In this document: in pieces, positions 580 to 64,000 of the stretch
Numbering within the stretch: position 1 is the stretch's first letter
Layout of the letters: each line of letters begins with the position of its first letter
NCBI GenBank assembly: GCA_963693365.1
Contig: CAVNZM010000013.1
Location: forward strand, 2,880,722 to 2,944,721
From: Amoebidium appalachense
Lineage: Eukaryota; Protista; Ichthyosporea
Direction of reading: 5' to 3'
DNA length: 64,000 bases
Program-made: the position numbers and the translations under genes
Notes under the pieces: generated by a model
Database searches by the model: none
What the model was told of the DNA's origin: nothing
The model's input: the letters and a program-made list of their open reading frames with translations, nothing else

Positions 580-1288
580 TGTCATCTTCACTTGATTCTC
601 AGCAAGACTTAGAAGTTGAGTTTTGTATTTATTTATTAGTTGTTGTAGTTTGTTTCCTTTTCCTTTCTTCATTTCTTTCTTTCTTTCCCGTTTCCGTGTA
701 CACGACATCTTAGATCTGTGTACGTATCGACATACTTAGCTCGCGCACACGTATTGTCGTTTGCGTCAAAATCTATATATGTCATCCAATCATATCTCGT
801 TTGTATTTTCCCAAATATAGTAACTTACATTCCTTTCTCATTCCTTTCCCACGACGTAGCATTGTGCTATGTTCTTCAACTATTAGGAATAATTATATTT
901 AGACGTGTTATGATAAGAACATGTATAAATGTATGTTATGAATTAATAGTTATATAAGTGGTTTCATTTTGTTAAATGTTTCCGTGCTTTTATTAGAAGT
1001 TTCTTTCATTAGAGGATTGAGTTTTATATTCTATGTGTCGACAGACATTTTAATCGATATATTTTACACTCATAGTTTTCGTCCTTTTGATTGGTTTATC
1101 GTTTCACATTCCCAAGTATAAAAGGGACCTCATCTTGAAATAAATCATAAGCAGTCGTATTCATTTCCTATGGTTCCAGAAATCGTACCTCCTCTCCGGT
1201 TGTGTTTTTTCCCGTGTGTCTCTGTGTTGTGTATATCATAACACCCATCTGTGCTCTCTGCTTCTCCGTTTAACCACACAAAATAACA
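580..1288 (+). repeat. 5' LTR (709 bp)
   Basis: Begins TGTCATCTTC, ends AATAACA. Direct repeat of 6260-6969. TATAAAA at ~1117. Confidence 0.95.
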
Positions 1289-1300
1289 GGTTTACGGCCC
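1289..1300 (+). promoter_or_regulatory. Primer-binding site, copia half-tRNA type variant (GGTTTACGGCCC)
   Basis: Directly follows the LTR. Same layout as the copia-type GGTTATGGGCCC half-tRNAiMet PBS, but with TAC in place of ATG. Confidence 0.6.
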
Positions 1301-1363
1301 CTTTGCACGCTAACACACAATCTCGTTACAACCGCGACATTCCTCAGTCTAACTGCTTCAATC

Positions 1364-3790
1364 ATGACTGACAAACCGTCGTATATCAACCTTCCAATAT
1401 GGAATCCGTCCGAGAAACGAGACGAGAAACGTCTTAATTATTTCGAGTGGGAGCCACTCATTCACCGGTTCATTAGAACAACCATTGCCGAGAAATTCGT
1501 TGACGCTATCAAGAGGCCACAGTGGGTTGATGGCGCTGAAGCCAACCAGTGGCTAGGCTACACCACCAAGGACTCCTACAAGAAAGCTTCCGACGTCCTC
1601 GACCAGATCCTCAACCAGTCCGTCCACCCGACCGAGCTCTACGACTCCGGCCGGATGCAAGACGGTGTCCACGGTGGTGAAGTCTTCCACAACCTACGTA
1701 TGGCGTATGTAGCAGAGAAGGAGGCCCGAGTCACCCAGATCCAAGTCACCTTCGAGGAGCTTGAACTACGAGACTACCCCAACGTCACAGCATACCTCAC
1801 CCGTCTCCAACGTCTGGCTACGACACTTGCCTCCCTCGACGAGCCCGTCCAGCACAAGGATGTCGTACGTAAGTTCTTCCTTCACCTCAGGAAGAACACG
1901 GCCCTGGTCTGCTCCGACATTGAACGTCTCTGCTCCGACTACTGGATGAACAACAAGGCCTACCCGTCCTTCAACCAGCTCATCAGTGACATCCGAGGAG
2001 CTGAAATCCGTGCCGGCCTCATCGACGCAGGCACAGGTGCAACCGTCAACAACCGTCCCCTCCGTGCACTCCAGAGCAGAGTGCTTCCCCCCGGTGACCT
2101 CCGTAACCGTATTCCTCGACGTGAGCATACACCTCACCGTTCCCCATCCCGTTCCCGTGATCCTCGTCCTTCCTCCAAGTCACCAGGCCCCCGTTCAACT
2201 TCCCCTTACCACCGTGGTAACAGGGACAACCGTAACCGACAGCACAACACCAAGAAGGTGGAGTGTTCCTACTGCCATGAGCCCCACCACATCACAGCAT
2301 GCCCGGAGCCTGGCTGTACTGTTGCTCGTCGTGCCAAGCAGGAGAAAGGCGACAAGAGTGTGAAATTTGCACTCATCTCCTCCACCGGCACACCAGACAA
2401 TAACGACCCCGTCTGGGACAGTGCTTGTAATGCACATATCTGCCCCATCAAGGAGTATTTCTCCTCCCTTACCCCGTGTCCTCCCACCCCCATTCACGGC
2501 CTCGGCACTGTCAATGCCAAACAACGTGGCATCATCAACATGACACTGCACTACAACGGCCACCCAACACCGTGCAGCATCAATGCTTACTACGTACCCG
2601 AGTCACCGTCTTTCCTCGTGTCTACCTCCATGGCCTCAGCTGCCGGCCTCCTAGGTCATTGTGACGATACAGACAACCACCCGTCGTTCCTCTACAGCCG
2701 TAATGGTGACATCATTTCAGATCTCACCCCCCTCGACGGTCTCTACTACATCACTGACTATGTGATTGAGACTCCTAAACACCCGGGGGTCCAAGCCTAC
2801 ACAGCAAGGACTCAACCCCCCGCCGACCTCACCCTTTGGCACAACCGTCTCGGCCACCGTGCCCTCTCCACCGTCACCAGGATGGCCAAAGATGAGCTTG
2901 TCTTCGGCATGCCCACCTCCCTGAAGTCACCCGACAACAGTGACTGCTTCGGCTGCATGGCTGGCAAGACCACCAAGGCCCCTTTTACCGGCACCCGTTC
3001 CAAGTTCACCATTCCCGGTGCTAAGTGGCACCTGGACTTCTTCGAAGCTCCCTGTGCTTCCTACGGAGGCTACAAGGTTGCTCTGGTGTGTGTTTGTGAT
3101 GCCACCGGATACACCACCGTGTTCCCCCTCTACAACCGTGGTGAAACACTCAGCTACATTCAGTCTCTCGTTGAAACCATTGAACGTCAGACACCTGAGA
3201 TCGTCACCCATCTTCGGTTTGACTCCGGCTCTGAGTTCACCGCCAAGGACACCGAGGCCTACTGCAAGCAGAAAGGCATCATGATGGAGTTTGCCCCCGT
3301 CGACACACCACAACACAACGGTGTTGTTGAACGGAAGATGAGAGAACTGCAAGAGACAGTCCGTTGCTTCCTCCATGCCGACAAGGACCAACCTCTCTCT
3401 CCCAAGTTGTGGGTTGCTGCTCTCAAGCATGCTGGCTACATCATCAACGTCACACCGTCATCTGCTGCCAACGGCAACACTCCCTTCGAGGCCTTCCACG
3501 GCTTCAAACCCGACGTCTCCCAGCTCCACGTGTTCGGCTCCCCTGCCTATGTGCATGTTCCCCGGTCAAAGAGGAACAAGCTGGCATCAACCGTCAGAGT
3601 CGGCACCTACGTCGGCTGGGACCTGCCCTCCAAGGCACACAAGATCCTCGACCATGCCAGCAACCAAATCAAGATCTGCCGTGATGTGATCTTCGACGAG
3701 TCCAAATTCACGAGCAGCACCAATCAGGTCTCCGTTCCCCCCAAACCCGATCTGCCGACATTGGACCCCCCCCTCCGACGACGACGATGA
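1364..3790 (+). CDS. gag-pol: Copia polyprotein N-part: Gag, zinc knuckle, aspartic protease, integrase
   Basis: Knuckle CSYCHEPHHITAC; protease VWDSAC; integrase zinc motif WHNRLGH...CFGC; DDE in WHLDFF / RFDSGSEF / NGVVERK; DVIFDE end motif. The frame is broken only in C-runs at 3766-3910. Confidence 0.93.
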   Translation: MTDKPSYINLPIWNPSEKRDEKRLNYFEWEPLIHRFIRTTIAEKFVDAIKRPQWVDGAEANQWLGYTTKDSYKKASDVLDQILNQSVHPTELYDSGRMQDGVHGGEVFHNLRMAYVAEKEARVTQIQVTFEELELRDYPNVTAYLTRLQRLATTLASLDEPVQHKDVVRKFFLHLRKNTALVCSDIERLCSDYWMNNKAYPSFNQLISDIRGAEIRAGLIDAGTGATVNNRPLRALQSRVLPPGDLRNRIPRREHTPHRSPSRSRDPRPSSKSPGPRSTSPYHRGNRDNRNRQHNTKKVECSYCHEPHHITACPEPGCTVARRAKQEKGDKSVKFALISSTGTPDNNDPVWDSACNAHICPIKEYFSSLTPCPPTPIHGLGTVNAKQRGIINMTLHYNGHPTPCSINAYYVPESPSFLVSTSMASAAGLLGHCDDTDNHPSFLYSRNGDIISDLTPLDGLYYITDYVIETPKHPGVQAYTARTQPPADLTLWHNRLGHRALSTVTRMAKDELVFGMPTSLKSPDNSDCFGCMAGKTTKAPFTGTRSKFTIPGAKWHLDFFEAPCASYGGYKVALVCVCDATGYTTVFPLYNRGETLSYIQSLVETIERQTPEIVTHLRFDSGSEFTAKDTEAYCKQKGIMMEFAPVDTPQHNGVVERKMRELQETVRCFLHADKDQPLSPKLWVAALKHAGYIINVTPSSAANGNTPFEAFHGFKPDVSQLHVFGSPAYVHVPRSKRNKLASTVRVGTYVGWDLPSKAHKILDHASNQIKICRDVIFDESKFTSSTNQVSVPPKPDLPTLDPPLRRRR

Positions 3791-3934
3791 AACTCCGTCT
3801 GTGGTCATCTCCCAACCGTCCTGGCACAACCAACCAGCCCCGGTTGAACCCGTGCCTCCCCCGAGCCCCCCCCCCCACTGGCCAACAACCCTTGCTGCCG
3901 GCCCCCCCCCGTTGCTGTACATCAACCCGGCTAC

Positions 3935-5737
3935 ATGACTCCGGTTCGTCCTGGGTCCCCCACCTTCCACTCGGCCTCGAGCAGCCCTGTGGACACCGAT
4001 GCCCCCCTCACCACCGGTCCTATTCCTGGCTTCCATGCCCCTATCCCGGCCTCCACCACCTACCCGGCCACCACCCCCCTCAAGGACCCCCCCAAGCCCA
4101 ACCTTCGTCGGTCTACACGTCTCACCAAGACTCTAACGGCACTGGTCAGCATCATAGCACCGACCATCAACATTGACCAGCTCCCCAAGGGCATTCAAAA
4201 GCTTTGCAACGGTCCCAACGGTGATGCCGTCATAGCTGCCCTCACCTCCGAGTACCAAGCCTTCATCACCAAGGATGTCTTCACCATTGTTGATCCCCCC
4301 CCTAGTGCCAACATCATCAAGTTCAAGTGGATTGTGACTGAGAAAGTCCTCAACTCAGCCGGTGACACCAAGATCAAAGCTCGTGGTGTTGCAAAGGGCT
4401 TCACTCAAGTCTACGGTGTTGACTACGGTGACACCTCTTCCCCCGTGGTGATGTCCTCCTCCGTCCGTGCCCTCCTTGCCATCGGTGTGGACGGCAACCA
4501 TGAGATTCATCAACTCGACGTCTCAACTGCCTTCCTCAACAGTCCTCTTCACGAAGACATCTACATTGAGCCACCACCTGGCTTCATCACCCCCGGCAAC
4601 GAACACAAGGTCTGGAAACTTAAGAAGGCACTCTACGGCCTCAAGCAAGCATCACTGGCCTGGTATGAGTACTTCGACAAGGTCCTCCTTGCTCACCGTG
4701 ACGGTCTTGAACGTCTCCGTTCAGATCCATGTGTCTACATCAAGACCTTACCCAACGGTGACATCATCCTCACTGGCAACTATGTGGACGACGTCATCAT
4801 CATCTGCACGGCCAACTCTTCCCACACCAAGGATCTAGTAGACCACATCATGAAGTCAGCTCTCTGCAAGGTTGACCTTCCCGACATCTTCCTTGGCACC
4901 CAGCTCATCCACACCCCCGGTCACCTCAAGCTGCTTCAACAATCCTACATCAACGACATCGTCAGAGACTTCAACCTCAACGATGCTCACCCCAAGGCTA
5001 CTCCCATTCCCGTCGGCACCGTCATCACCATCAACGAGAACGACTCACCACCCATCAAGGTTCCCTACCGTGAACTACTCGGCCGTCTTTTGTGGGTTGC
5101 TCGTTGTTCCCGGCCCGACATCTCCTTTGCCATCGGCTACCTCGGTAGATTCAGTGCCAACCCCACCAAACTTGCATGGGAATGTCTACTCCGTGAAGTT
5201 CGGTACCTCATCGGCACTTCCAACCTCGGCCTTCACTACGACAAGTCTGCATCCGACGACAACGTCCCCTTGCTGGAGTGTTATTCTGATGCTGACTTTG
5301 CCAACTGCCCCAACACCCGTCGTTCAACCACCGGATACGTCATCTTCTTCAAGGGCATACCCATCACATGGTATTCGAGGCTGCAGTCCATCACGGCAAC
5401 ATCCACCACCGAGGCTGAGCTTCTAGCCATCAATGCTGCTGTTCAAAACGTCATCTGGCACCGTGATCTCCTCCGTGAACTCGGCTACCCGATGACCGAC
5501 CCCACCCCCGTCTACTGTGACAACCAGTCCACCATTGCCCTCCTGCACACCAACAGCATCAAACACCGGACCAAACACATTGCAGTCCGGTACCACAACA
5601 CGAAGGACTACATCAAGAGTGGGGATGTGGTTGTCACCTACGTGTCCAGCAAAGACAACGTGGCTGACATCTTCACCAAGCCCCTGCCCGGGCCCTCCCA
5701 CGAGCAGCACCGTGATTCACTCAGTCTTCATGACTGA
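3935..5737 (+). CDS. pol: Copia polyprotein C-part: reverse transcriptase (RVT_2) and RNase H
   Basis: KARGVAKGF, QLDVSTAFL, LKKALYGLKQA, YVDD, SRPDISFA, YSDADFA, TKHI, ADIFTK. Same frame as 1364-3790. Confidence 0.95.
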   Translation: MTPVRPGSPTFHSASSSPVDTDAPLTTGPIPGFHAPIPASTTYPATTPLKDPPKPNLRRSTRLTKTLTALVSIIAPTINIDQLPKGIQKLCNGPNGDAVIAALTSEYQAFITKDVFTIVDPPPSANIIKFKWIVTEKVLNSAGDTKIKARGVAKGFTQVYGVDYGDTSSPVVMSSSVRALLAIGVDGNHEIHQLDVSTAFLNSPLHEDIYIEPPPGFITPGNEHKVWKLKKALYGLKQASLAWYEYFDKVLLAHRDGLERLRSDPCVYIKTLPNGDIILTGNYVDDVIIICTANSSHTKDLVDHIMKSALCKVDLPDIFLGTQLIHTPGHLKLLQQSYINDIVRDFNLNDAHPKATPIPVGTVITINENDSPPIKVPYRELLGRLLWVARCSRPDISFAIGYLGRFSANPTKLAWECLLREVRYLIGTSNLGLHYDKSASDDNVPLLECYSDADFANCPNTRRSTTGYVIFFKGIPITWYSRLQSITATSTTEAELLAINAAVQNVIWHRDLLRELGYPMTDPTPVYCDNQSTIALLHTNSIKHRTKHIAVRYHNTKDYIKSGDVVVTYVSSKDNVADIFTKPLPGPSHEQHRDSLSLHD

Positions 5738-5738
5738 G

Positions 5739-5777
<39 letters not shown>

Positions 5778-6250
5778 TTTCATCTACAGTGGTCTTCAAG
5801 TAGGTTGGGGCACTGGCCAGTGGTCTACACATCACCGTGTAGAGACACCTCCCAACGAAAGTCTACTGCTGTCTTCATCGATCTTCAGTGGGTGCATCTT
5901 CAGTGGGGATTTCTTCTCCACCATCCGTCGTTTATTTATATACCATCATATATATAATGTATAAATCATTTGCCACCAACACGTCAAACATACACTAGTT
6001 GTTTTCTTCTATATATATTTATATATCGTCATTGGCTACCGTCATGTTCCGAGTCTTCAGAGGCAACCGTCGTTGTGTGCTTCTCCCGTTTTGGTTTTCT
6101 TCACCGGCTTGCACCTTCAAGTCTTCTCCATTGTCTTCTCGAGTGGGGAAACTTGACTGTGACTTCACGGCACCTACTTCTACATGTGTGAGAGTCTTAA
6201 CATCAACAGTCACATCAACAAACTTCACGAGAACCCAACTTCCAACCCTT

Positions 6251-6259
6251 GAGTGGGGA
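6251..6259 (+). promoter_or_regulatory. Polypurine tract
   Basis: GAGTGGGGA immediately 5' of the 3' LTR. Confidence 0.75.
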
Positions 6260-6969
6260 TGTCATCTTCACTTGATTCTCAGCAAGACTTAGAAGTTGAG
6301 TTTTGTATTTATTTATTAGTTGTTGTAGTTTGTTTCCTTTTCCTTTCTTCATTTCTTTCTTTCTTTCCCGTTTCCGTGTACACGACATCTTAGATCTGTA
6401 TACGTATCGACATACTTAGCTCGCGCACACGTATTGTCGTTTGCGTCAAAATCTATATATGTCATCCAATCATATCTCGTTTGTATTTTCCCAAATATAG
6501 TAACTTACATTCCTTTCTCATTCCTTTCCCACGACGTAGCATTGTGCTATGTTCTTCAACTATTAGGAATAATTATATTTAGACGTGTTATGATAAGAAC
6601 ATGTATAAATGTATGTTATGAATTAATAGTTATATAAGTGGTTTCATTTTGTTAAATGTTTCCGTGCTTTTATTAGAAGTTTCTTTCATTAGAGGATTGA
6701 GTTTTATATTCTATGTGTCGACAGACATTTTAATCGATATATTTTACACTCATAGTTTTCGTCCTTTTGATTGGTTTATCGTTTCACATTCCCAAGTGTA
6801 AAAGGGACCTCATCTTGAAATAAATCATAAGCAGTCGTATTCATTTCCTATGGTTCCAGAAATCGTACCTCCTCTCCGGTTGTGTTTTTTCCCGTGTGTC
6901 TCTGTGTTGTGTATATCATAACACCCATCTGTGCTCTCTGCTTCTCCGTTTAACCACACAAAATAACAG
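6260..6969 (+). repeat. 3' LTR (710 bp)
   Basis: Direct repeat of 580-1288, followed by TSD GTTGT. Confidence 0.95.
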
Positions 6970-10322: not shown

Positions 10323-21276
<10,954 letters not shown>

Positions 21277-27620: not shown

Positions 27621-41247
<13,627 letters not shown>

Positions 41248-46090: not shown

Positions 46091-48183
46091 AACGCGACCG
46101 GAGATCTGGAATTCTGTTTTGTGATTTTGACCACCAGGCGCCCCCAACAAACACACTACCTCACCCGGACAACGGGTCGACTCATACCCCAACTCATATC
46201 CGACCCCAAATCTACCGGTTTTCTCTTTATCGCACCACCAAATACCCCGGATTTTGATTCGGGAAATACGACAAGCCTGGCAGGAGCCGAAGGACAGCGG
46301 CCGACATTAGATGTATCGAATGACGAGTGGGACGATTTTGAGCTGTTGGAAGGATTGGTACCGATGATTCAACCAACACGGGAAATGTATTCCGGTTTTC
46401 CGAAAGGCTTTGCTGTTGGTAAAGAACCGATTAACAATGCGATCAAAGGTGGGGTTGATTACGCTAATGCCATGAAAGTTTGCGAATTTACGAATGCGAA
46501 AAACGTTGTTGTTGTTGAAGATGACGCTGAACCTTCCGGCCATTTGCTCCAGCGACTGAGAAATGCAATCGGAAAAGTCGGAGGAGAATATTCGGTGTTG
46601 AAGTTGTATTTCAATGAAAAGTAAGCACCTCCCCCCTCCCCTCCCCTCCCTCCTCCCCCTCCCCTCCTCCTCCCCCCCCCCCCCCCCCCGCCCCCCTACC
46701 CCCCCCCCCCCCCCCCCGCCGCCCCGGCGGCCGCCCTACCTAACCACCCGCCCCGCTCCTCAACTCTCTCTCTTGTAACGATAATGTGGTAAACCTGATG
46801 ATGACAGTTCTCCCTATTCCTCCTCCCCCCCCCCCCCCCCCCCCCCCCGCCTCACTCTCTACCGAAAAAGGGAGAAGGAAGATTGAGATGTAGGGAAAAC
46901 CAGTCGTCCTTACTTCCATAATACCCCCCCCCCCCCCCCCCCCCCCCCCGCCCTGTCCCCCGGCCCGCTGTCCCCCTATGGTACTCCATTCCCCCCCCCC
47001 CTCAACCTCGCATCAAACTGTGTCCGATGCCCCTTTATTCCTCTTCCCCCCCCCCCCCCCCCCCCCCTACTTCCATGCAACCGGGCATGGTTGCTCTGTG
47101 TCGTGCATCTGTAAGCACATACGCGTTTGTCGCTGCACTGCATTAGTTTGCACATACATCTTCACCGTTTTGCTCACCTTGCTTGCATAAGCAACCCTGC
47201 TCGTCTTTGATCAAGACGGGTTGACCCACCCAAGTTCAGTTGATGCTGCTGTCTGAGTTGGAGCGTCGTATATACGCGGGCTAAGGGGTCGAAACTCAGA
47301 CGCAATTGATGACTTGGGCCCTCCCTGAGGATGGGCTCTGCTTATGACGCATACTGTGCGCATGGCTGATGCTGCATACTTGAATGGTTGCCTTTGCATG
47401 TGTCCTGCACCATGCTTCTCATCGTGTATGCGTACTTCGTACTGTGTTCCGCATTCAACCCCCCCCCCGAGTGAAATGCGGCAGCCATTGCGGTATTTAT
47501 GCCTTCGGCGTTTAGCAAAAGGCGTGTTTCGATTGGAGACATCTGACTATGACAGACAAGTCCCCCACTGCCGGCCCCAGGCAACATGCATATGTACATG
47601 TATTTGTTCCTTGATTCAGAATTCTTTCAATGAACACAATAATGGTAATACGTAGCGTGCACATATTTCAAGATGTATTTAAGTAGCTGCGATACTTATT
47701 TAGCCTACCGGCCAATCATTCCGCGGCGCGGCGGGGGCCGGTGATGTCACTGATGTGACCAAATGTTACGTAATATCTTGTAGCCACTCAGAGCGCATCG
47801 CTGCTTACTATATTTGGTGTCGTCATCCCACAGATTCCAATCGTCATCCCACATGTCTCAGCCACTGACTGAAAGTCTCGAAGGTGGAAGTTGAAGCCTT
47901 GCCACCCTTGCGGCCCCTCCCCCCTCCCCCCTCCCCCCTCTCCCCCAAAACACCACCACCACCTCCACCTCTGCAACCACTCACCCACCCACTCACCACC
48001 GTTGTCGCTTTCTTTCCAGATATTGTTTGTGAATGGGGCACGTGTTAACAGTATTCAGTTCAGTGCAGCACACAAACACACAGTTACCTTTCTAGCGTGT
48101 ACATCCACAAGTATACACCTATTTGTTCTTCGTAACTAGTATCCCCAAGGACAGAAATGCACCGAAATCCTCCCTCCCTCCCC

Positions 48184-52932: not shown

Positions 52933-55717
52933 CTTATGGCAATAATGGCAACCGTTCCTTGCCTGAGTGTGGTATGGAGGTTGGGTCTTTCGACAGTGAT
53001 GGCTCTGACGATGACGATGAGGGGTCAAGTGACGAGAGCCCCGGTTCATTCAACGTGTCAACATGTGTGCGCCTAGCAGGCCGCAAGCTTAACGCCCGGC
53101 GTGCGATGCGCAAGCTGATTGGGTCTGTGCACAGCTCCGAAGGGTTTGCTTTAGCAGCACAGGACCCGGATCATCTGCTCTTCACTCTAGTGTTCTTTGA
53201 CGAGGCCGTGGCAGCAGACATACAGCTTGCCAGGTGCTTCCTGCCGAACCCCCCCCCCCCCCCCCCCCCCTTCCCCTCCAACGCCCCCCGCTCCTCCCTC
53301 TCGCCTCTCCCCCCCTTTCCCTGCAGGGCCTCCTCCCCTTTCCCCCATCCCCCTTTCCCCTCCCCCCCCCCCTCCCCCCCCCCCCCCGCCCCCTTTTCTG
53401 CATCCCCCTCCCCCTCTCCTCCTTCCCACAATTCTTCCTCCCAACTGCTCCACCTCCTTACTTCCTTGCACGTATCAATCCATCTCTCCTTCCAACCCAA
53501 GTGACACCAGTTTTTTGTCAGACAACCTGCCTCCCCAGGCCCACTTATTATGCCTGTCCTGTTCCCCTCCCCCCCCCCCTCTCCCCCCTCAGGAGGGCCT
53601 CTGCCCATTCGTCCCTCCTTTTCAAGTCCTCCATTACCTCTTACCTCCCCTAATTCTCATTATTCTCTAATAGTATACCTATATCTTCCATCCTACCTTT
53701 TTGGAAGCTCCCTGCTTCTCTTCCACCTATTTGAAAGCATCTGCATCTACCCCCCCCCCCCCCCCCCCGGGTTGACCCACCCAAGTTCAGTTGATGCTGC
53801 TGTCTGAGTTGGAGCGTCGTATATACGCGGGCTAAGGGGTCGAAACTCAGACGCAATTGATGACTTGGGCCCTCCCTGAGGATGGGCTCTGCTTATGACG
53901 CATACTGTGCGCATGGCTGATGCTGCATAGTTGAATGTTTGCCTTTGCATGTGTCCTGCACCATGCTTCTCATCGTGTATGCGTACTTCGTACTGTGTTC
54001 CGCATTCAAACCCCCCCTGTCTTCTTTCAGAGGTGTCCTTTCAGGACAGACCACTGTGTGGAGACATCTTTACTTCCATGCAACCGGGCATGGTTGCTCT
54101 GTGTCGTGCATCTGTAAGCACACGCGTTTGTCGCTGCACTGCATTAGTTTGCACACACATCTTCACCGTTTTGCTCACCTTGCTTGCATAAGCAACCCTG
54201 CTCGTCTTTGATCAAGACGGGTTGACCCACCCAAGTTCAGTTGATGCTGCTGTCTGAGTTGGAGCGTCGTATATACGCGGGCTAAGGGGTCGAAACTCAG
54301 ACGCAATTGATGACTTGGGCCCTCCCTGAGGATGGGCTCTGCTTATGACGCATACTGTGCGCATGGCTGATGCTGCATAGTTGAATGTTTGCCTTTGCAT
54401 GTGTCCTGCACCATGCTTCTCATCGTGTATGCGTACTTCGTACTGTGTTCCGCATTCAAACCCCCCCTGTCTTCTTTCAGAGGTGTCCTTTCAGGACAGA
54501 CCACTGTGTGGAGACATCTTTACTTCCATGCAACCGGGCATGGTTGCTCTGTGTCGTGCATCTGTAAGCACACGCGTTTGTCGCTGCACTGCATTAGTTT
54601 GCACACACATCTTCACCGTTTTGCTCACCTTGCTTGCATAAGCAACCCTGCTCGTCTTTGATCAAGACGGGTTGACCCACCCAAGTTCAGTTGATGCTGC
54701 TGTCTGAGTTGGAGCGTCGTATATACGCGGGCTAAGGGGTCGAAACTCAGACGCAATTGATGACTTGGGCCCTCCCTGAGGATGGGCTCTGCTTATGACG
54801 CATACTGTGCGCATGGCTGATGCTGCATAGTTGAATGTTTGCCTTTGCATGTGTCCTGCACCATGCTTCTCATCGTGTATGCGTACTTCGTACTGTGTTC
54901 CGCATTCAAACCCCCCCTGTCTTCTTTCAGAGGTGTCCTTTCAGGACAGACCACTGTGTGGAGACATCTTTACTTCCATGCAACCGGGCATGGTTGCTCT
55001 GTGTCGTGCATCTGTAAGCACACGCGTTTGTCGCTGCACTGCATTAGTTTGCACACACATCTTCACCGTTTTGCTCACCTTGCTTGCATAAGCAACCCTG
55101 CTCGTCTTTGATCAAGACGGGTTGACCCACCCAAGTTCAGTTGATGCTGCTGTCTGAGTTGGAGCGTCGTATATACGCGGGCTAAGGGGTCGAAACTCAG
55201 ACGCAATTGATGACTTGGGCCCTCCCTGAGGATGGGCTCTGCTTATGACGCATACTGTGCGCATGGCTGATGCTGCATAGTTGAATGTTTGCCTTTGCAT
55301 GTGTCCTGCACCATGCTTCTCATCGTGTATGCGTACTTCGTACTGTGTTCCGCATTCAAACCCCCCCCCCCCCCCGTTCATAGCCCCTCCTTCATCAGTA
55401 CTCCCTTACACCTGCCCGGCCCCCTTCAGAGTGCCTAACCCCCTCCCCCCCCCCACACACACACCCCTCCCCTTTCACACACCTGCACACACGAACGCAC
55501 ACATGCATGCACGCATGCACCCTCCCTCGCAGCCACGAGCGCACACACTCTTATTCACTTATAGAATTGTTAATAATCTAATGCCCCCCCCCCCCCCCCC
55601 CCAACCCCCCCCCCAACCCCAACCCACCCACACACGCACACACACACACACGCCAAGGTTTCCCTTGTTCTGCTCCTCGGCCTTTCCGCCTTCCCCATAA
55701 TCTGTCTTTCTCTCTCT

Positions 55718-55754
<37 letters not shown>

Positions 55755-58254
55755 CCCCACCCCACTGTCACCCACCCCACCACCACTGCCCTACGTCACC
55801 CTCCCACTTCTTGTCTTTGCTTATTCTTCCTTGTGATGTGCAACACAGGGACATATCCGGGCCACCTGAGGTCCAGCAACAACGCCTTCTTCAAATTCTG
55901 GGTGCCTGGAGAATGGAGCTTATGGAAACACCCGCTGACGGCAACTGTTTGTTTCATTCGGTGTGGCATTATATCAATCAGTATCTACAAAGCGGTCATG
56001 TAGCTACCCGTGAACACCTCAACACATTGGGGTTTACAGCTAATATGGAGCCTATAGAGGCGATTGGACGGCTACGCGAACTAATGGTAAACGAATGGCG
56101 GCGAAATCTAGCAGAATACCAAGGATTCCTTTCAAGGGTGACCCTCGCATACGTAGCTGATGATTTCCGCTGTCCTCGGCGCGCCCATTTTGCTTCTGCA
56201 GCCGGTGACGCGATGGTGCTGGGCTTAGCCAACGCACTCCGCATACCAATAACCATTTTTAGCACGATTGCCAATCACGGTGTAGTTGCGGTCACTCCAC
56301 CCACCGTCATCGAACCCAACATTGCCATACCCGTATCACTTAACGGTGCAGCAGATCATTACTCAGTGGTAATACCTCGCTTGTCGCATGCGAACAAAAT
56401 CTCGGACAACAACCAAACACAAACATCACACTCAGTTGACACGGAAAACTCGACGGAGTTGGCGTCTAACGCTAACACAACTGACACGTTCGGTGGGTTG
56501 CCCGCCAAGGGCTGCAGCTGTAATAGAAACAGTAAGGATAGAACACGTTTTTTTTGTGGTTTTAAGAACGGCGGGGGAAAAGTGCAGGCATACGATGGGC
56601 ATGAGCGTTGCATATGCGCAAAGAACAAGCGGGCATGCACCCAGGCATGCAGGTGTGAGAATTGTGGCAACAGGTGAGCCGTATGATATGCATTTGCTAC
56701 TTTTCTTCTTTTGCATCCTCTATTTGCCCACACTTGGTACTTTATAATCGAAACCTTAACTTGGCCAAATCCAGGTATTTCTGCTTGTCCCTCTCTTTAT
56801 TCCCCCCCCCCCCCCCCCCCCCCCTTTCCCCCCCCCCCCCTCCCTCCCCCCCCCCCCCCCCCCCCCCCGGGAGGGGAAAGAAAAGCCCCCTCTCCCAATC
56901 CCCTCCCCCTCCTGTATCCGTCGTTTCATGATGTCTAACCCCTCCTCCTCCCCCCCACCTTCCCCACTGCTCACCACCTGCACACCCGCACACCATACAC
57001 AAACTTAAACACACACACGCATGCACGTGTGCACGCACACACACAGCCCCTCCCCCCCCCCCCCCCCCCCCAACACACACACACACACACACACAATGCA
57101 TCCGCGCATCATGGTCCATGCATACACGTGTGTGGATAGATGCACAGGTGCACGAATCCACGCACGCACGCACCCACAGAGCACGTGTGCGCACGCACAC
57201 ACAAACACACATGTGTACACGTGGGCGCGCATTCACACGCACACACAAACGCACATACACATGCAGTCATGGACAGCGGCCAGAGCCAAACCGTCCAGGT
57301 CGCCCGTCTACCATGCAGCTTCATTTATCCGGCGAAGGGGGGAACCTTTCCCTGAGAAGTGGTGATGGGTCCACCACCACCCATACGGCCAACACAACAG
57401 CCACCAGGGGCAAGGCCACTGCCACGGTTCCAACGCAAAGGCGGCGCGCACGATTCACGCAAACACGAACCACAGATCAGAATGGTTTGGAGTATTATGT
57501 GTCTGTGGGCGAGGAGGTACGTTCGGGTAGATGGTCGGATGCGGAGACCGCGTTGATTGAAAGTATTGTTATTTCGCTTGCGGAACAAAAGTTGCCGGCA
57601 ACAGAGGAGGACATATTTGCACATTACCATGCAGCATTGGAGGGCAACGAGGAGGGTGTGGGGCTGGATGCCATCCTTTCCAAAGCATTGAAACAAATCA
57701 AGTCAAAAATAGAACACATTGAGAAGGAAAGACGTTTGCGTAGTCAGGTGGCCGCCGAGGTGAGGGAGGAAATCGCGAGGGCTAAGGAAGCCGCTGCTAG
57801 GACAGTTACGGAGAAAGCAAGCGAGAGAGCACGAAACACGAAACGTGGGCTGAAGTCACAGAGTAATTCACAGACTGCCCCGTCAAAGAAGGCCAAGCCC
57901 AGCGGCCTTTCACGTGCAAGCACCAACACAGGTGTTGCCCCTCAGGAGCATGATCCCACCAGTTCGTCAACCGATTCGGCGGATGAATTCCAAAGCACCC
58001 AACAGTCTGGGGTGATTCCCCCTAGCCAGCACCCGCACCATCCGCAAGCGTTCCACCCCAGTTATTATCACACATACCCGAGCACGATAGCCAGTGCACA
58101 ATGTAGCGTCTGTCAACTGACTTTAGCAATCCCTCCCCATCTGTGTCATACTTACATGCAATGCTGTAGGTGCAAGGCCATGTTGTATGCTCTGGTCACC
58201 GCTTTTGGCATCCGCCTGCTCAGTTTTAGTGTCACGGATAATAGGTGGAAGTGA
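52933..58254 (+). CDS. Spliced gene: acidic segment, OTU cysteine protease, CXC/CRC-like domain, Myb/SANT-like helix, coiled coil, C-terminal C4 zinc ribbon; 5' part (51538-52105) degenerate; probably DNA-transposon derived
   Basis: Exons 52933-53233, 55849-56673 and 57267-58254 join in phase 2. Motifs: TPADGNCLFHSV...DHYS (OTU Cys/His); CSC..C..RCICAKNKRACTQACRCENCGN; GRWSDAETALI; CSVC...CCRC. Confidence 0.72.
53768..55360 (+). repeat. Tandem array of the 450-bp structured element: one 5'-truncated unit plus three apparently identical full units, intronic
   Basis: Exact period of 450 (54011-54460, 54461-54910, 54911-55360). Units are joined by C7 and flanked by long C runs. Confidence 0.97.
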
Positions 58255-59195: not shown

Positions 59196-61265
59196 TTTTT
59201 CTTTTTTTTTTTCTTTTGACTGGATTTATTCGACGGAAAGATATGACAAGTATGCACGGCATACTGAGAAGACAATAAAAACTTCACGAGTTATCCAGTA
59301 ACAAGTGCAGACTGAGATACCTGAACACTGTGTGAAAATCATATAAATACTCAATGTGACGACCAACAGAATTCAACAAAAAGTCTAAAGTGTTCACATT
59401 GCCAGCTAGTGTAGCAGATACCCGGAGGGAAAGAGGTAAAACGCAACATAAAAATTCACACCTATCAACATGCTTGCGATTAAAAAGGTCAGCACAAAAG
59501 TGGCACCAGCGGCGATGAAAACAAGAATTACAGCGCCACTGCACAACTTCCCAGGCAATATCAACATCAGAGCACCATACAGACTTATCTACTAGGGTGG
59601 TATCCATACGTACAGCAGGAGAAATGTAACCTGCCAAAGCTCCCAAAAAGCGATAATGATCAGTACGGTGTTGCCTAAGGAACATAACACATGCCGACTG
59701 AGTTTTACCTTTGATTTCTCTATCAGAACGAGAAAGAAACTTATACTGCGTATGGTAATAACGCAAAAAGGCAGAAAAAACAGGAAGAGAAAAGAAAGAG
59801 GGAGTGAGATAGCGAGAGGAAGAATCAGGTGGAAAGAGGGTAGGCTGAGGACATTCAGAAGTAGCGTTGGTGAATCGGGGGGAAGAGGGATGGAGGGAGG
59901 GGGGGGAAAGAAAGCATAAAGAGGGTGACCATCAGGTAGCCTAACTAAATGAAAACAAAAACGAAGAGACAATTCCTCCATACGACAAACAGCAGACGAC
60001 AATCCAAACATACTGATTAAGGGAGGCACGAACCGAGTACGAAACAAAGTGCGTAGCGCAGTACCCTGAAAATCGTCGAACTCGTTCAGCGCCATTGCCG
60101 CCTCGCGAGGTGGGGCGCAGGCCAATAGCGGAAGTCCATATTCGAAAGTCGGCCGTAAAAAAGCTTTATAGTAGAGAAGAAGGTTCGCAGGATGGATCAC
60201 AGACTCCTGTTGAAACATATTTGACACGATGTGAAGCTTACCCTTTGCACGAGCGATCCGTGCTGTGAGGAGCTTGCGGAAATCAATACCCCGTGCAGTA
60301 AAAGATGATACCCAAATAGTCATAGGTGCTCTGAACAGGAATAGGAAGGCCGGCCAATCGAAAGGAAGTGTTCTTCGAAAAAGTAGCACACTTTGCAATT
60401 CCGACTGTCATGAAATTCTCGGTGCACCATTGATCCACCTGACGAAGCATCTGGTGCATGACATCTTCGGTTAAGGAACAATTTGAAAGAACAATATCGT
60501 CCGCAAAAAGGAGACCCGGTACACGACGGGTATGCAGTTGGCCAAAGGGTTCGAGGGCGCAGGCTAAATCGTCAATGAAAACGTCAAACAACAACGGACT
60601 CAGGAGGGACCCCTGCAGAAGACCCCGGGAACGGGAAAAACCGGGTGTTAATGTTCCATTGACCGCCGCGCGTCCGCGAGTGGTATCGAACAACGCTTGC
60701 AGAAGACGGCCAAAGGGGGCTGGTAAGCCCCGCATAGCTAGCTTATGCCATAACAAACCAGTGGGTACGGTGTCGTAGGCGTTCTTAAGGTCGATGAAGA
60801 CAACGTGTGGAGAGCCAGAAGTAATGGATTCATGGAGTAACAGACTGTGAGTATAACACGAATAGGCATGACGAAAGCCCCCTTGAAGGGAAGAAAGACG
60901 GAACACGGCGTTTAAAGAATCGTCGGTGTTAAACGCGCGAAGCATGCAACCCTCGAAGAGCCGACGAAAAACGTTGGTAAGTGTGACGGGACGAAAGTCG
61001 TTAATGACCCCCTGCGATACCTTCTTACGAACGGGCGTAACGATTGTGTCAAGCCAGGAATTTGGAATAAACCCGAGTTCGAAAAAAAGCCGAAAAAAAC
61101 TCACTAAGAAGGACAGCAAAAGGCGGGGGCGGGGGGGACTTTGCACGATTACGGGGCGGAAGCACGGGAGAAAGAACCTTGAAAAGGACGGGAGGAAGAG
61201 CATCCGGCCCGCACGCCTTGCGGGGTTTTAACGCCCGTATAGCACCAAAAACAGCCGAAGAGTGG
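59196..61265 (-). mobile_element. 5'-truncated LINE (non-LTR retrotransposon) with frameshifted RT ORF and poly(A) tail
   Basis: KACGPD, NDFRPVTL, QGGFR, FIDLKNAYD, GLLQGSLLSP, LFADD, YDYLG, Cys/His C-terminus. AATAAA at 59230-59225, A-tail at 59217-59196. Confidence 0.92.
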
Positions 61266-61404: not shown

Positions 61405-61525
61405 AGCCAATCAAAACATCAGATACCACAGATCACTAGACCGAGTTATGATTGGCTCGGATCAGATTTCACATATTGCTAGATCGATTTTGATTGGCTC
61501 AGATCGGTAGGCTTAGGTATATAAG
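61405..61525 (+). promoter_or_regulatory. Pol II promoter-like region of the Ngaro/DIRS element
   Basis: Three CCAAT/ATTGG boxes (~61407, 61451, 61493), then TATATAA at 61518, ~130 bp before the gag ATG. Confidence 0.55.
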
Positions 61526-61647
61526 CACGACAGTTTTTAGCAGATCAGCAACTTGAAGCTACAAACACATCTTCTGTGTTTAGCATCCACAGCCTTACAG
61601 CTATATATTCCTTTTCACTCTCCCTATCTTTCCCTACGCCGGTCAGC

Positions 61648-62817
61648 ATGCCGCCGAAAAAGCGCCAGGCCTCAGCCACCGCCCCTGCCGCGGCACCTAA
61701 GCGCCTGACCCGCAGCGACCTCCGCCACAGGCTGACCAACGCTCCCGCGGACACTGACGCGCCTCCAGCGGCCCATACCACCACGGACCCGGACCCGCCG
61801 GCTACTCTCCCCTCCACTCCTGAAGTCCCCCCTCAGGCCCCGCCGTCCCCGCAGATGACTTCTCAAGACGCCGTCCTTGCCGCCCTCACCGCCATCAGCA
61901 CCCAGATGGCTGGCGTCCTGGCTGCCCTCACCAACCGCGACCCTCCCGCGCCCCCCGCCGCGCCCTCCGCACCCGGGGAGGTTTCCCCGGGGCTGCATCT
62001 CGGCCCTGACCTAGACCTACCTGCCCTGCCCGCGCCCCCCATCACAGGTGAGAACACTGGCGACATTCAGCCGGGCACACTCCCGCTTCCCCCCGCGGAT
62101 GTGCTGGCAGATTTGCGCGCCAATCGTTTCGTCGACCTGTATAAGTTCACCCCCGCCGCCCTCCTGGCCCCATCCAAGAAAGGTCAGCATCTGCGCATGG
62201 CCGACGACGGCAGCATCGAGACTTTTCGCCAAGACAAACCCGTTCCCCTGCGTTCACTCGTCATTTGGATCCAAGCTTGGACCCATTACATGGCCGCCAA
62301 GCACCACCTCGGCCTCCCCACGGACAAAGACGTACTTTGGACTCAGCACATCACTCGCCTCAGCACCCGATACCCGTGGGCCCAGATCCACAACTATGAC
62401 GTATACGCCCGCACCGTTGCCCACCAGCAGGGTCGGGCTCCGATCGAGTGTCCCAACCTGCTCGCCCAACTCCACCAGGATCTCCTCCTGCCACCCACTC
62501 TGCTCATCCCGGACGCATGTCAGCGCTGTGGCTTCCCCGACCACCCCAGCGCGGCCTGCCCCATGTACCCCAAGCCCGGCTGTGGTCTTGACGGCTTTAA
62601 GCCGCCCCACAAGCCCGGCGGGGGTCAAACCCCTAACCGCCCTGGCCCGCAACCCGGCCCGGCAAAACCGGCCCGACCCGTGGATCTACCCGCGACGCAC
62701 TGCAGGAATTTCCACATTAACGGTCGGTCCTGCGCTAAGCAGCCCTGCCCCTTCTCCCACGTGTGCCCGCTCTGCTCTGGCACACACCCCCGCAAAGACT
62801 GCAAGCACAATGCCTAG
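61648..62817 (+). CDS. gag: Gag-like ORF1 of a tyrosine-recombinase (Ngaro/DIRS) retrotransposon
   Basis: FVDLYKF, W.QAW..Y, W..I.NYD..R; CCHC (CQRCGFPDHPSAAC); C-terminal CRNFH..C..C.FSHVC..C...H....C cluster. Confidence 0.85.
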   Translation: MPPKKRQASATAPAAAPKRLTRSDLRHRLTNAPADTDAPPAAHTTTDPDPPATLPSTPEVPPQAPPSPQMTSQDAVLAALTAISTQMAGVLAALTNRDPPAPPAAPSAPGEVSPGLHLGPDLDLPALPAPPITGENTGDIQPGTLPLPPADVLADLRANRFVDLYKFTPAALLAPSKKGQHLRMADDGSIETFRQDKPVPLRSLVIWIQAWTHYMAAKHHLGLPTDKDVLWTQHITRLSTRYPWAQIHNYDVYARTVAHQQGRAPIECPNLLAQLHQDLLLPPTLLIPDACQRCGFPDHPSAACPMYPKPGCGLDGFKPPHKPGGGQTPNRPGPQPGPAKPARPVDLPATHCRNFHINGRSCAKQPCPFSHVCPLCSGTHPRKDCKHNA

Positions 62818-63209
62818 TCTACGCGCACACCCACACACACAGCTAGAACATAGGGGTTAGGAGCTAGGACACACGAGTACAGGGAAACGGAGCTCGGGAG
62901 AACGGGCCAATAGGGCTGAGTACAAAATTTCGCAGGCCAACTACGGCGCCCGCGCGCGTCAAGAATAAATGTCCCTACACAAAGACGTTTATTCTGGCCA
63001 CTGCACATAATTTTACTCCCCCCCCCCATCCCACGAGCCTCCCCCCCCCTTACACTCACCTAGCACTCCCCCCCCCCCCCCTTCTTCTACCTCTGTGTCC
63101 GCCCACACCCCCGCGTGCTCGGGCACATTCCCCTGCACAGGGCCCCGCTGCCCTCCCTGCCAACCCTCACTTGGGCCCAGCTGCCCTACTCTAACCCCCC
63201 GGGGCCCTG

Positions 63210-63261
<52 letters not shown>

Positions 63262-63279
63262 CTGCCGGGATCTCCCTGA

Positions 63280-64000
63280 GGGTGCCCCACCCTTGCTAAC
63301 CACCCCTTCCCCCGAGGCTCAGACCCGGCGGCCCGCCCGCTGCCCCAGCACCACATTGACACCTCCCGCCTCCGGGAACTGCTGGCCTCCTACCCAGACC
63401 AATCATTCGCCGCACAACTCCTCCACGATGTCGAATTCGGTGTCGACATCGGCTATCGCGGCCCCTCCACCTCTCGGGTGGGCCCCAACCTACCCACCAC
63501 CCCGGAGGCAGCTGCCGCTATCACGGCGGATATTGCCAAAGAAGTCGCCCTCGGCCACCTGCGCGGCCCCCTCTCCCCGGCCCAATTCTTTGACGAATTT
63601 CCGGTCCACCGTTCCTCCCCCATCGGCGCCGTTACCAAGAAAGGGAACCCCCCCAAGTACCGTCGAATCCACCACCTCTCCTGGCCCCGGGGTAGCAGTG
63701 TCAATGACAGCATCACCTACCCCGACGAACTTCAGTACATTCGCGCCCGGGATGTCACCCAGCTCATTCTCGACGCAGGCCCCGGCTGCTACATGGCCGT
63801 GGCAGATGTGCAGGCTGCCTTCCAGCACATGCCCATCCGACCAGAAGACCATCACTTAATGGCATTCAAATGGCAGGGGCATTTTTACGTTGAAACCAGA
63901 CTGCCCTTCGGCCTGAAATCTAGCCCAGCCATCTGGGAACGGATCGCGGCCACCCTACAGTGGCTGGCACACCAGCACGGTATTACCCTCATCCGCCACT
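63280..64000 (+). CDS. pol: Reverse transcriptase of Ngaro/DIRS retrotransposon (partial; runs off the window; missing from the ORF track)
   Basis: The frame of 63901 reads GVDIGYRGP..N..I.KEV..G...GP..SPIGAVTKK..KYRRIHHLSWPRGSSVND..ADVQAAF...PIRPEDHHLMAFKWQG.FY..RLPFGLKSSPAIW. Confidence 0.92.

Follow-up and report, generated by a model that had tools for sequence, protein, structure and literature searches.

The closest described counterparts of the repeat reported here belong to the Naiad/Chlamys clade of Penelope-like elements. In the available sections of Craig et al. 2021 (PMC8557442), Chlamys elements are described as targeting (C)n and (CA)n and as frequently truncated at the 5' end; non-autonomous Chlamys forms such as MRC1 occur as insertions with multiple copies joined head to tail, and Chlamys-1 and Chlamys-2_cRei, both of which target (C)n, terminate in AA followed by a C run. 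Naiads and most Chlamys elements are reported in the same sections as being without canonical hammerhead ribozymes, some of them carrying core letters that fit no descriptor. Hammerheads with their three core blocks in the orders SGC and CSG are known to cleave, in a scheme that assumes uninterrupted blocks, and according to the available text of Eckert et al. 2023 (PMC10085705) ribozymes of these two orders come from metatranscriptomes or metagenomes only, and from the genome of no known organism. Metazoan non-LTR retrozymes are non-coding tandem units of about 150-300 bp in animal hosts, with one type I hammerhead per unit, a proposed Penelope-like partner and a circular template, and no C-run target is reported for them in the available parts of the literature (PMC7761336; bioRxiv 10.64898/2026.07.22.740005). 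In the endonuclease-less Athena/Coprina elements, which attach to telomeres, a C-rich RNA stretch near the hammerhead is thought, in the sources available, to pair with G-rich DNA ends.

The repeat lies in a 64-kb window, by which we mean the whole stretch of DNA that was analysed (64,000 nt). It is best explained, at a probability of roughly 0.55, as a non-coding, C-run-flanked, tandem-forming and likely non-autonomous Penelope-like passenger of the Naiad/Chlamys clade, each unit of which carries a rearranged hammerhead core predicted to cut after position 54260 and to release 450-nt monomers. The array is on the plus strand, between a C19 run at the 5' junction (the target, 53750-53768) and a C15 run at the 3' junction (55361-55375), both read directly from the sequence. 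A 5'-truncated first unit (53769-54018), comprising the 3' 250 nt and identical to the full units by BLAST and alignment, is followed by full 450-nt units at 54019-54468 and 54469-54918 and by a third at 54919-55360 that stops at the fixed 3' end. When the array was compared with the window by BLAST, the period was 450 nt and the 250-nt piece and the three units were 100% identical; the C7 junctions are located at 54011-17, 54461-67 and 54911-17, in agreement with the partial unit and three identical units joined by C7 that the preliminary description had reported. That description was also correct in finding no credible open reading frame, as all three unit frames (scanned from 54215-54574) fell below the Pfam cut-off, and no poly(A) in the repeat. 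Rfam returned no match to 54000-54950 at E-values up to 10. The hairpin richness noted earlier stands insofar as folding exceeds that of shuffled sequences, but for the whole unit it does so only modestly (z -1.46), so that hairpin richness alone is weak evidence.

Both the 100% identity of the units and the fact that the whole array was spanned by none of the contigs aligned to it, from four runs, would suit a dispersed repeat that had been duplicated at the DNA level or misassembled into an array. However, the C7 junction, including an adjacent T>A variant, is covered by contigs from all four runs aligned to the array (two of which, X1 and X5, are possibly a source of the same DNA) and is thus not peculiar to the assembly. 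It is found with sequence variants on many contigs, and a 468-nt contig from a different coded organism (record 9 of run X16) wraps round the unit. Duplication or artefact is the least likely of the alternatives considered here.

Four further copies were found by BLAST within the window, which together with the array make up the five loci described previously. Two of these belong to the main subfamily: a 5'-truncated copy at 47068-47458 (plus strand), 98.5% identical and situated between C22 and C10 runs, and a 5'-truncated copy at 12817-13081 (minus strand), 99.3-99.6% identical and located in an intron of an NRBP-like kinase gene, on the gene's own strand. The copy at 38582-38856 (minus strand) represents a second subfamily (81% identity over 179 nt), in which the motif described below is intact and shows compensatory changes, and that at 31373-31685 (minus strand) a third, more diverged subfamily (72% over 150 nt), in which the core letters are kept and stem I is lost from register. 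The proposal that the copies are 5' truncations of a single unit therefore applies to 47068 and 12817 but not to 38582 and 31373, which have the 3' part alone in common with the unit and, because their upstream sequence differs, are not truncations of it.

At all five loci the 3' end is TTCA plus 0-3 more A, abutting a C run of 10-51, and the 5' start lies directly after a same-strand C run of 14-37 (1 nt after it in one case). Runs of seven or more C or G account for 6.5% of the window, and target-site duplications are unreadable inside C runs. The fixed 3' end against poly(C) described earlier is thus present at 5/5 loci, and these loci and the array support the original identification of a concatemer-forming retroelement that targets poly(C) and has a constant 3' end. 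The insertion pattern itself is not new: non-autonomous Chlamys elements have already been described with a fixed 3' end, with 5' truncation, with (C)n as the target and with copies arrayed head to tail. As in non-autonomous members of the Naiad/Chlamys clade, the head-to-tail insertions carry a 5'-truncated upstream copy, and all five loci have microsatellites, here (C)n, as their insertion sites. The likeness to MRC1 and similar forms extends to the absence of coding sequence and to the AA-plus-C-run end of Chlamys-1 and Chlamys-2_cRei. The differences are the host, a green alga there and holozoan-looking here; the hammerhead-core motif, which was seen by eye in neither of the two Chlamys elements examined in the available supplement; and the partner, which was not found here. 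The repeat adds a new member to a kind of element already known.

The unit was present in 20 of the 24 public runs listed. Contigs matching the array numbered 4,887 in X1, 11,353 in X5, 260 in X15 and 12 in X13, and those matching the 38582 subfamily 8,162 in X5, 16 in X13, 14 in X9 and 2 in X16; such counts do not give copy number, and the DNA analysed here possibly derives from X1 and X5. Among the array-matching contigs are ones that cross the junction, ones that differ in C-run length and many in which a C run is joined to an internal position; the counts show a large, varied family. X13 and X15 are RNA by guess only, and their contigs were left out as proof of expression.

A LINE or Penelope partner had been suggested for the repeat. 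A Penelope-like element is the best fit, on the traits of non-autonomous Chlamys elements, but no autonomous partner was found in the window (80 frames scanned of the 93 picked). A search with one Naiad RT derived from a prokaryote genome bin gave no protein attributable to the host lineage among 120 of the 260 Naiad-like proteins listed. Alternatively, an autonomous Penelope-like element might have spread truncated copies of itself, of which the repeat would be merely the 3' UTR or pseudo-LTR. The upstream part of the 38582 and 31373 subfamilies, unlike the main unit, is pyrimidine-rich, as are Naiad 3' UTRs, and these copies could be such ends; the main unit, however, is closed on itself, in that its own C7 precedes its 5' end at three places in the array and again in contigs of four runs, and we consider this origin quite unlikely. 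A LINE-dependent SINE with an unusual tail is less likely still. Its fixed 3' end and 5' truncation would fit LINE-type priming, and there is a LINE-like RT at 60286-61227, but the repeat has no similarity to that element, no tRNA, 5S or 7SL head and no LINE-related or A-rich tail. The lack of poly(A) and of any Rfam match at E up to 10 (54000-54950) also speaks against a SINE, while the tandem arrays and the Naiad-type motif indicate Penelope-like elements.

The evidence for a hammerhead core in the proposed Penelope-like passenger comes from the subfamily alignment, in which three conserved blocks correspond to the three hammerhead-core strands: G-U-U at the site, C-GAAA-C, and CUGAGGA. The hammerhead-like domain of unit 1 occupies 54187-54347 on the plus strand and is repeated at 54637-54797, at 55087-55247 and, in part, at 53774-53897. 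Every unit has the blocks in the order site, GAAA (54292-95), CTGAGGA (54326-32), that is, S-G-C, which is not that of circular types I, II or III. By analogy with the hammerhead core, self-cleavage is predicted after U17, between 54260 and 54261, and likewise after 53810, 54710 and 55160. The 16 core positions are all invariant across the three subfamilies, against 59% of the other columns (p about 2e-4, with positions picked after the alignment had been seen). A descriptor built on the motif matched seven of its eight copies and no other site in the window; among 5000 shuffled versions of the unit none gave an equally good match, and two passed a loose cut. The earlier comparison with retrozymes thereby gains a concrete basis in a hammerhead-core motif present in every unit, but the host is not animal-looking.

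Canonical hammerheads of types I-III and other intact block orders had no match in 736,972 bases (the window plus 50 loci with a Naiad RT). The absence of a canonical hammerhead reported for Naiad and Chlamys elements is thus found here as well, Rfam being negative and none of the six block orders matching when the blocks were required to be intact with no more than one extra nucleotide. The motif pattern had no match in viral contigs, and a 19-nt version had three in metagenomes, with no similarity outside the pattern. HDV-like, twister, SECIS and tRNA T-loop readings, assessed by eye against consensus features, were dropped because the letters that they require vary between subfamilies.

Stem I (54261-64/54322-25) has 4 bp in the main subfamily and 3 bp in the 38582 subfamily, and stem III (54252-59/54295-302) has 9 and 13 bp, respectively. 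Stem II (54224-28/54287-91) is best paired with a strand upstream of stem III, about 100 nt from CUGAGGA, with five Watson-Crick pairs in the main subfamily and six in 38582. Compensatory changes between these two subfamilies convert one C-G to U-A in stem II, one A-U to G-C in stem I and, at least once, G-C to A-U in stem III. With its stem II strand upstream, the core would have a backbone break between A9 and G10.1, an arrangement not among the six permutations published. The stretch linking stem I to stem II contains a perfect 10-nt palindrome in both the main (54268-54277) and the 38582 subfamilies, different in sequence, which could pair two RNA molecules.

The pseudoknot helices were assigned from pairing and conservation. 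The minimum-energy fold computed for the main subfamily contains the closing helix P0 after A9 (54187-98/54334-47), hairpin A before G10.1 (54201-21) and the long stem III, and its apical loop and CUGAGGA loop are filled with other small hairpins. In the three subfamilies stem III extends through tandem G-A pairs beside a 3-nt bulge (about 54236-46/54306-14), features that we take to fit the K-turn consensus; a K-turn-like bend, suggested by pairing and conservation, would return the flanking strands to the loop. The window copies also offer a rival GU-rich stem II of 4-6 bp, directly after A9 plus 2 nt (-5.1 vs -7.1 kcal/mol for the upstream option). The upstream option is more stable, covaries and is the sole option seen in four Naiads checked by eye. 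We infer a split topology, in which stem II would be formed with a strand upstream of the K-turn-bent long stem III and the rest of the RNA would enter the core between A9 and G10.1. The out-of-register stem I of 31373, the short stem I of 38582, the rival stem II and the small hairpins in both loops speak against this topology.

The same rearranged architecture was recognized by eye in 6 of 15 Naiad 3' regions in the available parts of the published supplement, representing five independent families and three phyla: Naiad-3_Chem, Naiad-2_Movir, Naiad_Anas, a near-identical record before Naiad_Anas, Naiad_Plae and Naiad_EuTe. All six have the closing helix after A9, the hairpin before G10.1, the upstream stem II, the extended stem III and stem I, in sequences that are all different; the record before Naiad_Anas has one mismatch each in stems I and II. 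Among the remaining regions, seven are without the motif, one is ambiguous and one has the uninterrupted CSG order. These are by-eye readings of a non-random sample, four of the five supplement parts having been picked via search hits. Complete type-CSG hammerheads (CUGAnGA, site, GAAA) with 5-bp stems I and II were read by eye in the records before Naiad-2_Nbra and before Naiad_Lpol (PMC8557442 File S5), one of the two being the CSG region just counted. In the available sections of the same paper just two of the six motif families carry an HHR_core flag, and no structure is drawn. The repeat thus shares its motif architecture with the 3' UTRs of these Naiads, which are autonomous, come from animals, prefer (TA)n and are reported as lacking canonical hammerheads (PMC8557442). 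The motif is patchy in the clade, because the descriptor has no match in any of the 50 loci retrieved through a Naiad RT pattern. Those loci (L004-L053) lie in prokaryote genome bins, and many represent Naiad RT genes of eukaryotic appearance that probably stem from host or bystander DNA; they include 3.8-kb tandem arrays with Naiad RT genes (L007, L017 and neighbouring loci) and an open reading frame of 1022 aa that combines GIY-YIG with RT and ends in (CA)n (L024). The Naiad RT pattern had no match in viral contigs.

If it cleaves, the motif is a new hammerhead variant; a hammerhead opened between A9 and G10.1, or rearranged hammerheads in Naiads, are nowhere described in the available parts of a largely open-access literature (including PMC3088659 and PMC13159263). 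With type-SGC and type-CSG ribozymes it shares a non-circular block order, a stem I strand linked to the stem II strand and all core letters, in the SGC order of site, GAAA and CUGAnGA. In the published ribozymes CUGAnGA stays joined to the stem II strand, whereas here the best strand lies about 100 nt upstream, and the stem I-II linker, about 3 nt in type SGC, is about 18-22 nt in the window and 3 nt in Naiad_Plae and Naiad_EuTe as read by eye. Cleavage would mean that the hammerhead core tolerates a strand break where continuity was assumed, and would place non-circularly rearranged hammerheads in nuclear genomes, beyond environmental RNA. The view that Naiads are without hammerheads would then need revision, and the failure of standard descriptors to pick them up would be explained. 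Like the metazoan non-LTR retrozymes, the repeat is tandem and non-coding with one predicted hammerhead-like motif per unit, and a Penelope-like partner and a circular template are proposed; it differs from them in its S-G-C order, its 450-bp unit, its C-run target and a host that looks like a unicellular holozoan. The C-rich stretch near the hammerhead-like motif, proposed to pair with G-rich DNA, is a likeness to Athena/Coprina, with the difference that the repeat is found at internal C runs.

The fold predicted for the monomer places the two cut ends next to each other and leaves five of the seven C of the C7 unpaired at 0.88-0.96, so the monomer could circularise and offer its C7 to a nicked G strand, much as the preliminary description had proposed. 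Transcripts of the array would be cut once per unit, after 54260, giving 450-nt monomers whose ends would be held by stem III and possibly rejoined into a circle. The GIY-YIG endonuclease of the partner would nick the G strand of a C/G run, the nicked 3' end would pair with the exposed internal C7, and reverse transcription starting there would produce the fixed 3' end. Early drop-off would leave 5'-truncated copies, and copying round the circle or along an uncut multimer would yield identical arrays. All five loci extend 5' beyond the predicted cut site, and a cut linear monomer would template only 200 nt; the templates would thus be rejoined circles or uncut multimers. We consider it possible, at somewhat less than even odds, that the motif is an active hammerhead with a K-turn-bent topology opened between A9 and G10.1 and outside the six permutations, that it is the missing ribozyme of many Naiad-clade elements from animals to their unicellular relatives, and that the element is a retrozyme making a 450-nt circle whose exposed C7 primes insertion at C/G runs.

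The passage of all five loci through the predicted cut site would also suit a motif that serves as a protein-binding or priming structure, or a ribozyme irrelevant to mobility, in an element of the same Naiad/Chlamys-type origin; the arrays would then arise, with no circle, from uncut read-through transcripts, from template jumping or from new insertions into the C tail that the element already carries. In the available text on the Poseidon element (PMC11167929), whose protein is the one Penelope-like protein studied in vitro, reverse transcription begins at an internal site that lacks homology to the cut DNA, ribozyme cleavage is dispensable, and no RNA-seq reads ended at the ribozyme site. 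The start site and the dispensable cleavage also speak against the model preferred here. Many Naiads and both Chlamys elements examined in the available supplement spread without the motif, and one contig carries a truncated copy directly behind the C tail of another copy (loose end at 54942). Re-insertion alone, however, would not easily account for units that are identical and share an unvarying C7 and an unvarying, complete 5' end, and the conservation of catalytic letters, beyond the helices, across subfamilies and phyla argues against this reading as a whole. We regard this alternative as unlikely, yet the most serious of those considered. The proposed passenger itself is short, high-copy and apparently young and has a defined target besides its predicted cut site, so that it would permit a direct test of the role of ribozymes in Penelope-like transposition.

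The NRBP-like kinase gene that holds the 12817 copy extends over 10326-21276 (minus strand), with 11 exon matches to protein P0001 and long introns full of C runs and CA repeats. Animal sequences rank behind its closest relatives, which are EukProt CFRG3893T1 (56%) and, at 39%, a Colp12 transcript; we take the CFRG3893T1 and Colp12 prefixes to denote unicellular holozoans. On this one gene and these labels, the host appears to be a unicellular animal relative and not an animal. A Copia-like LTR element at 580-6969 has long open frames and 710-bp LTRs that are 99.7% identical, and is probably very recent. Just after the array, two long open reading frames at 55577-58254 (plus strand) are possibly another mobile element; the first has a weak OTU protease match, a cysteine cluster and Atlas leads below 0.9, and the second has no Pfam match. 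Further downstream are an RT with broken frames at 59284-61227 (minus strand), presumably LINE-like, and a gag-like open reading frame followed by an RT fragment, presumably DIRS-like, at 61525-64000 (plus strand). Tandem repeats occur at 34508-34970 (51 bp, 9.1 copies, 98%) and at 30101-30508 (about 115 bp, 3.6 copies).
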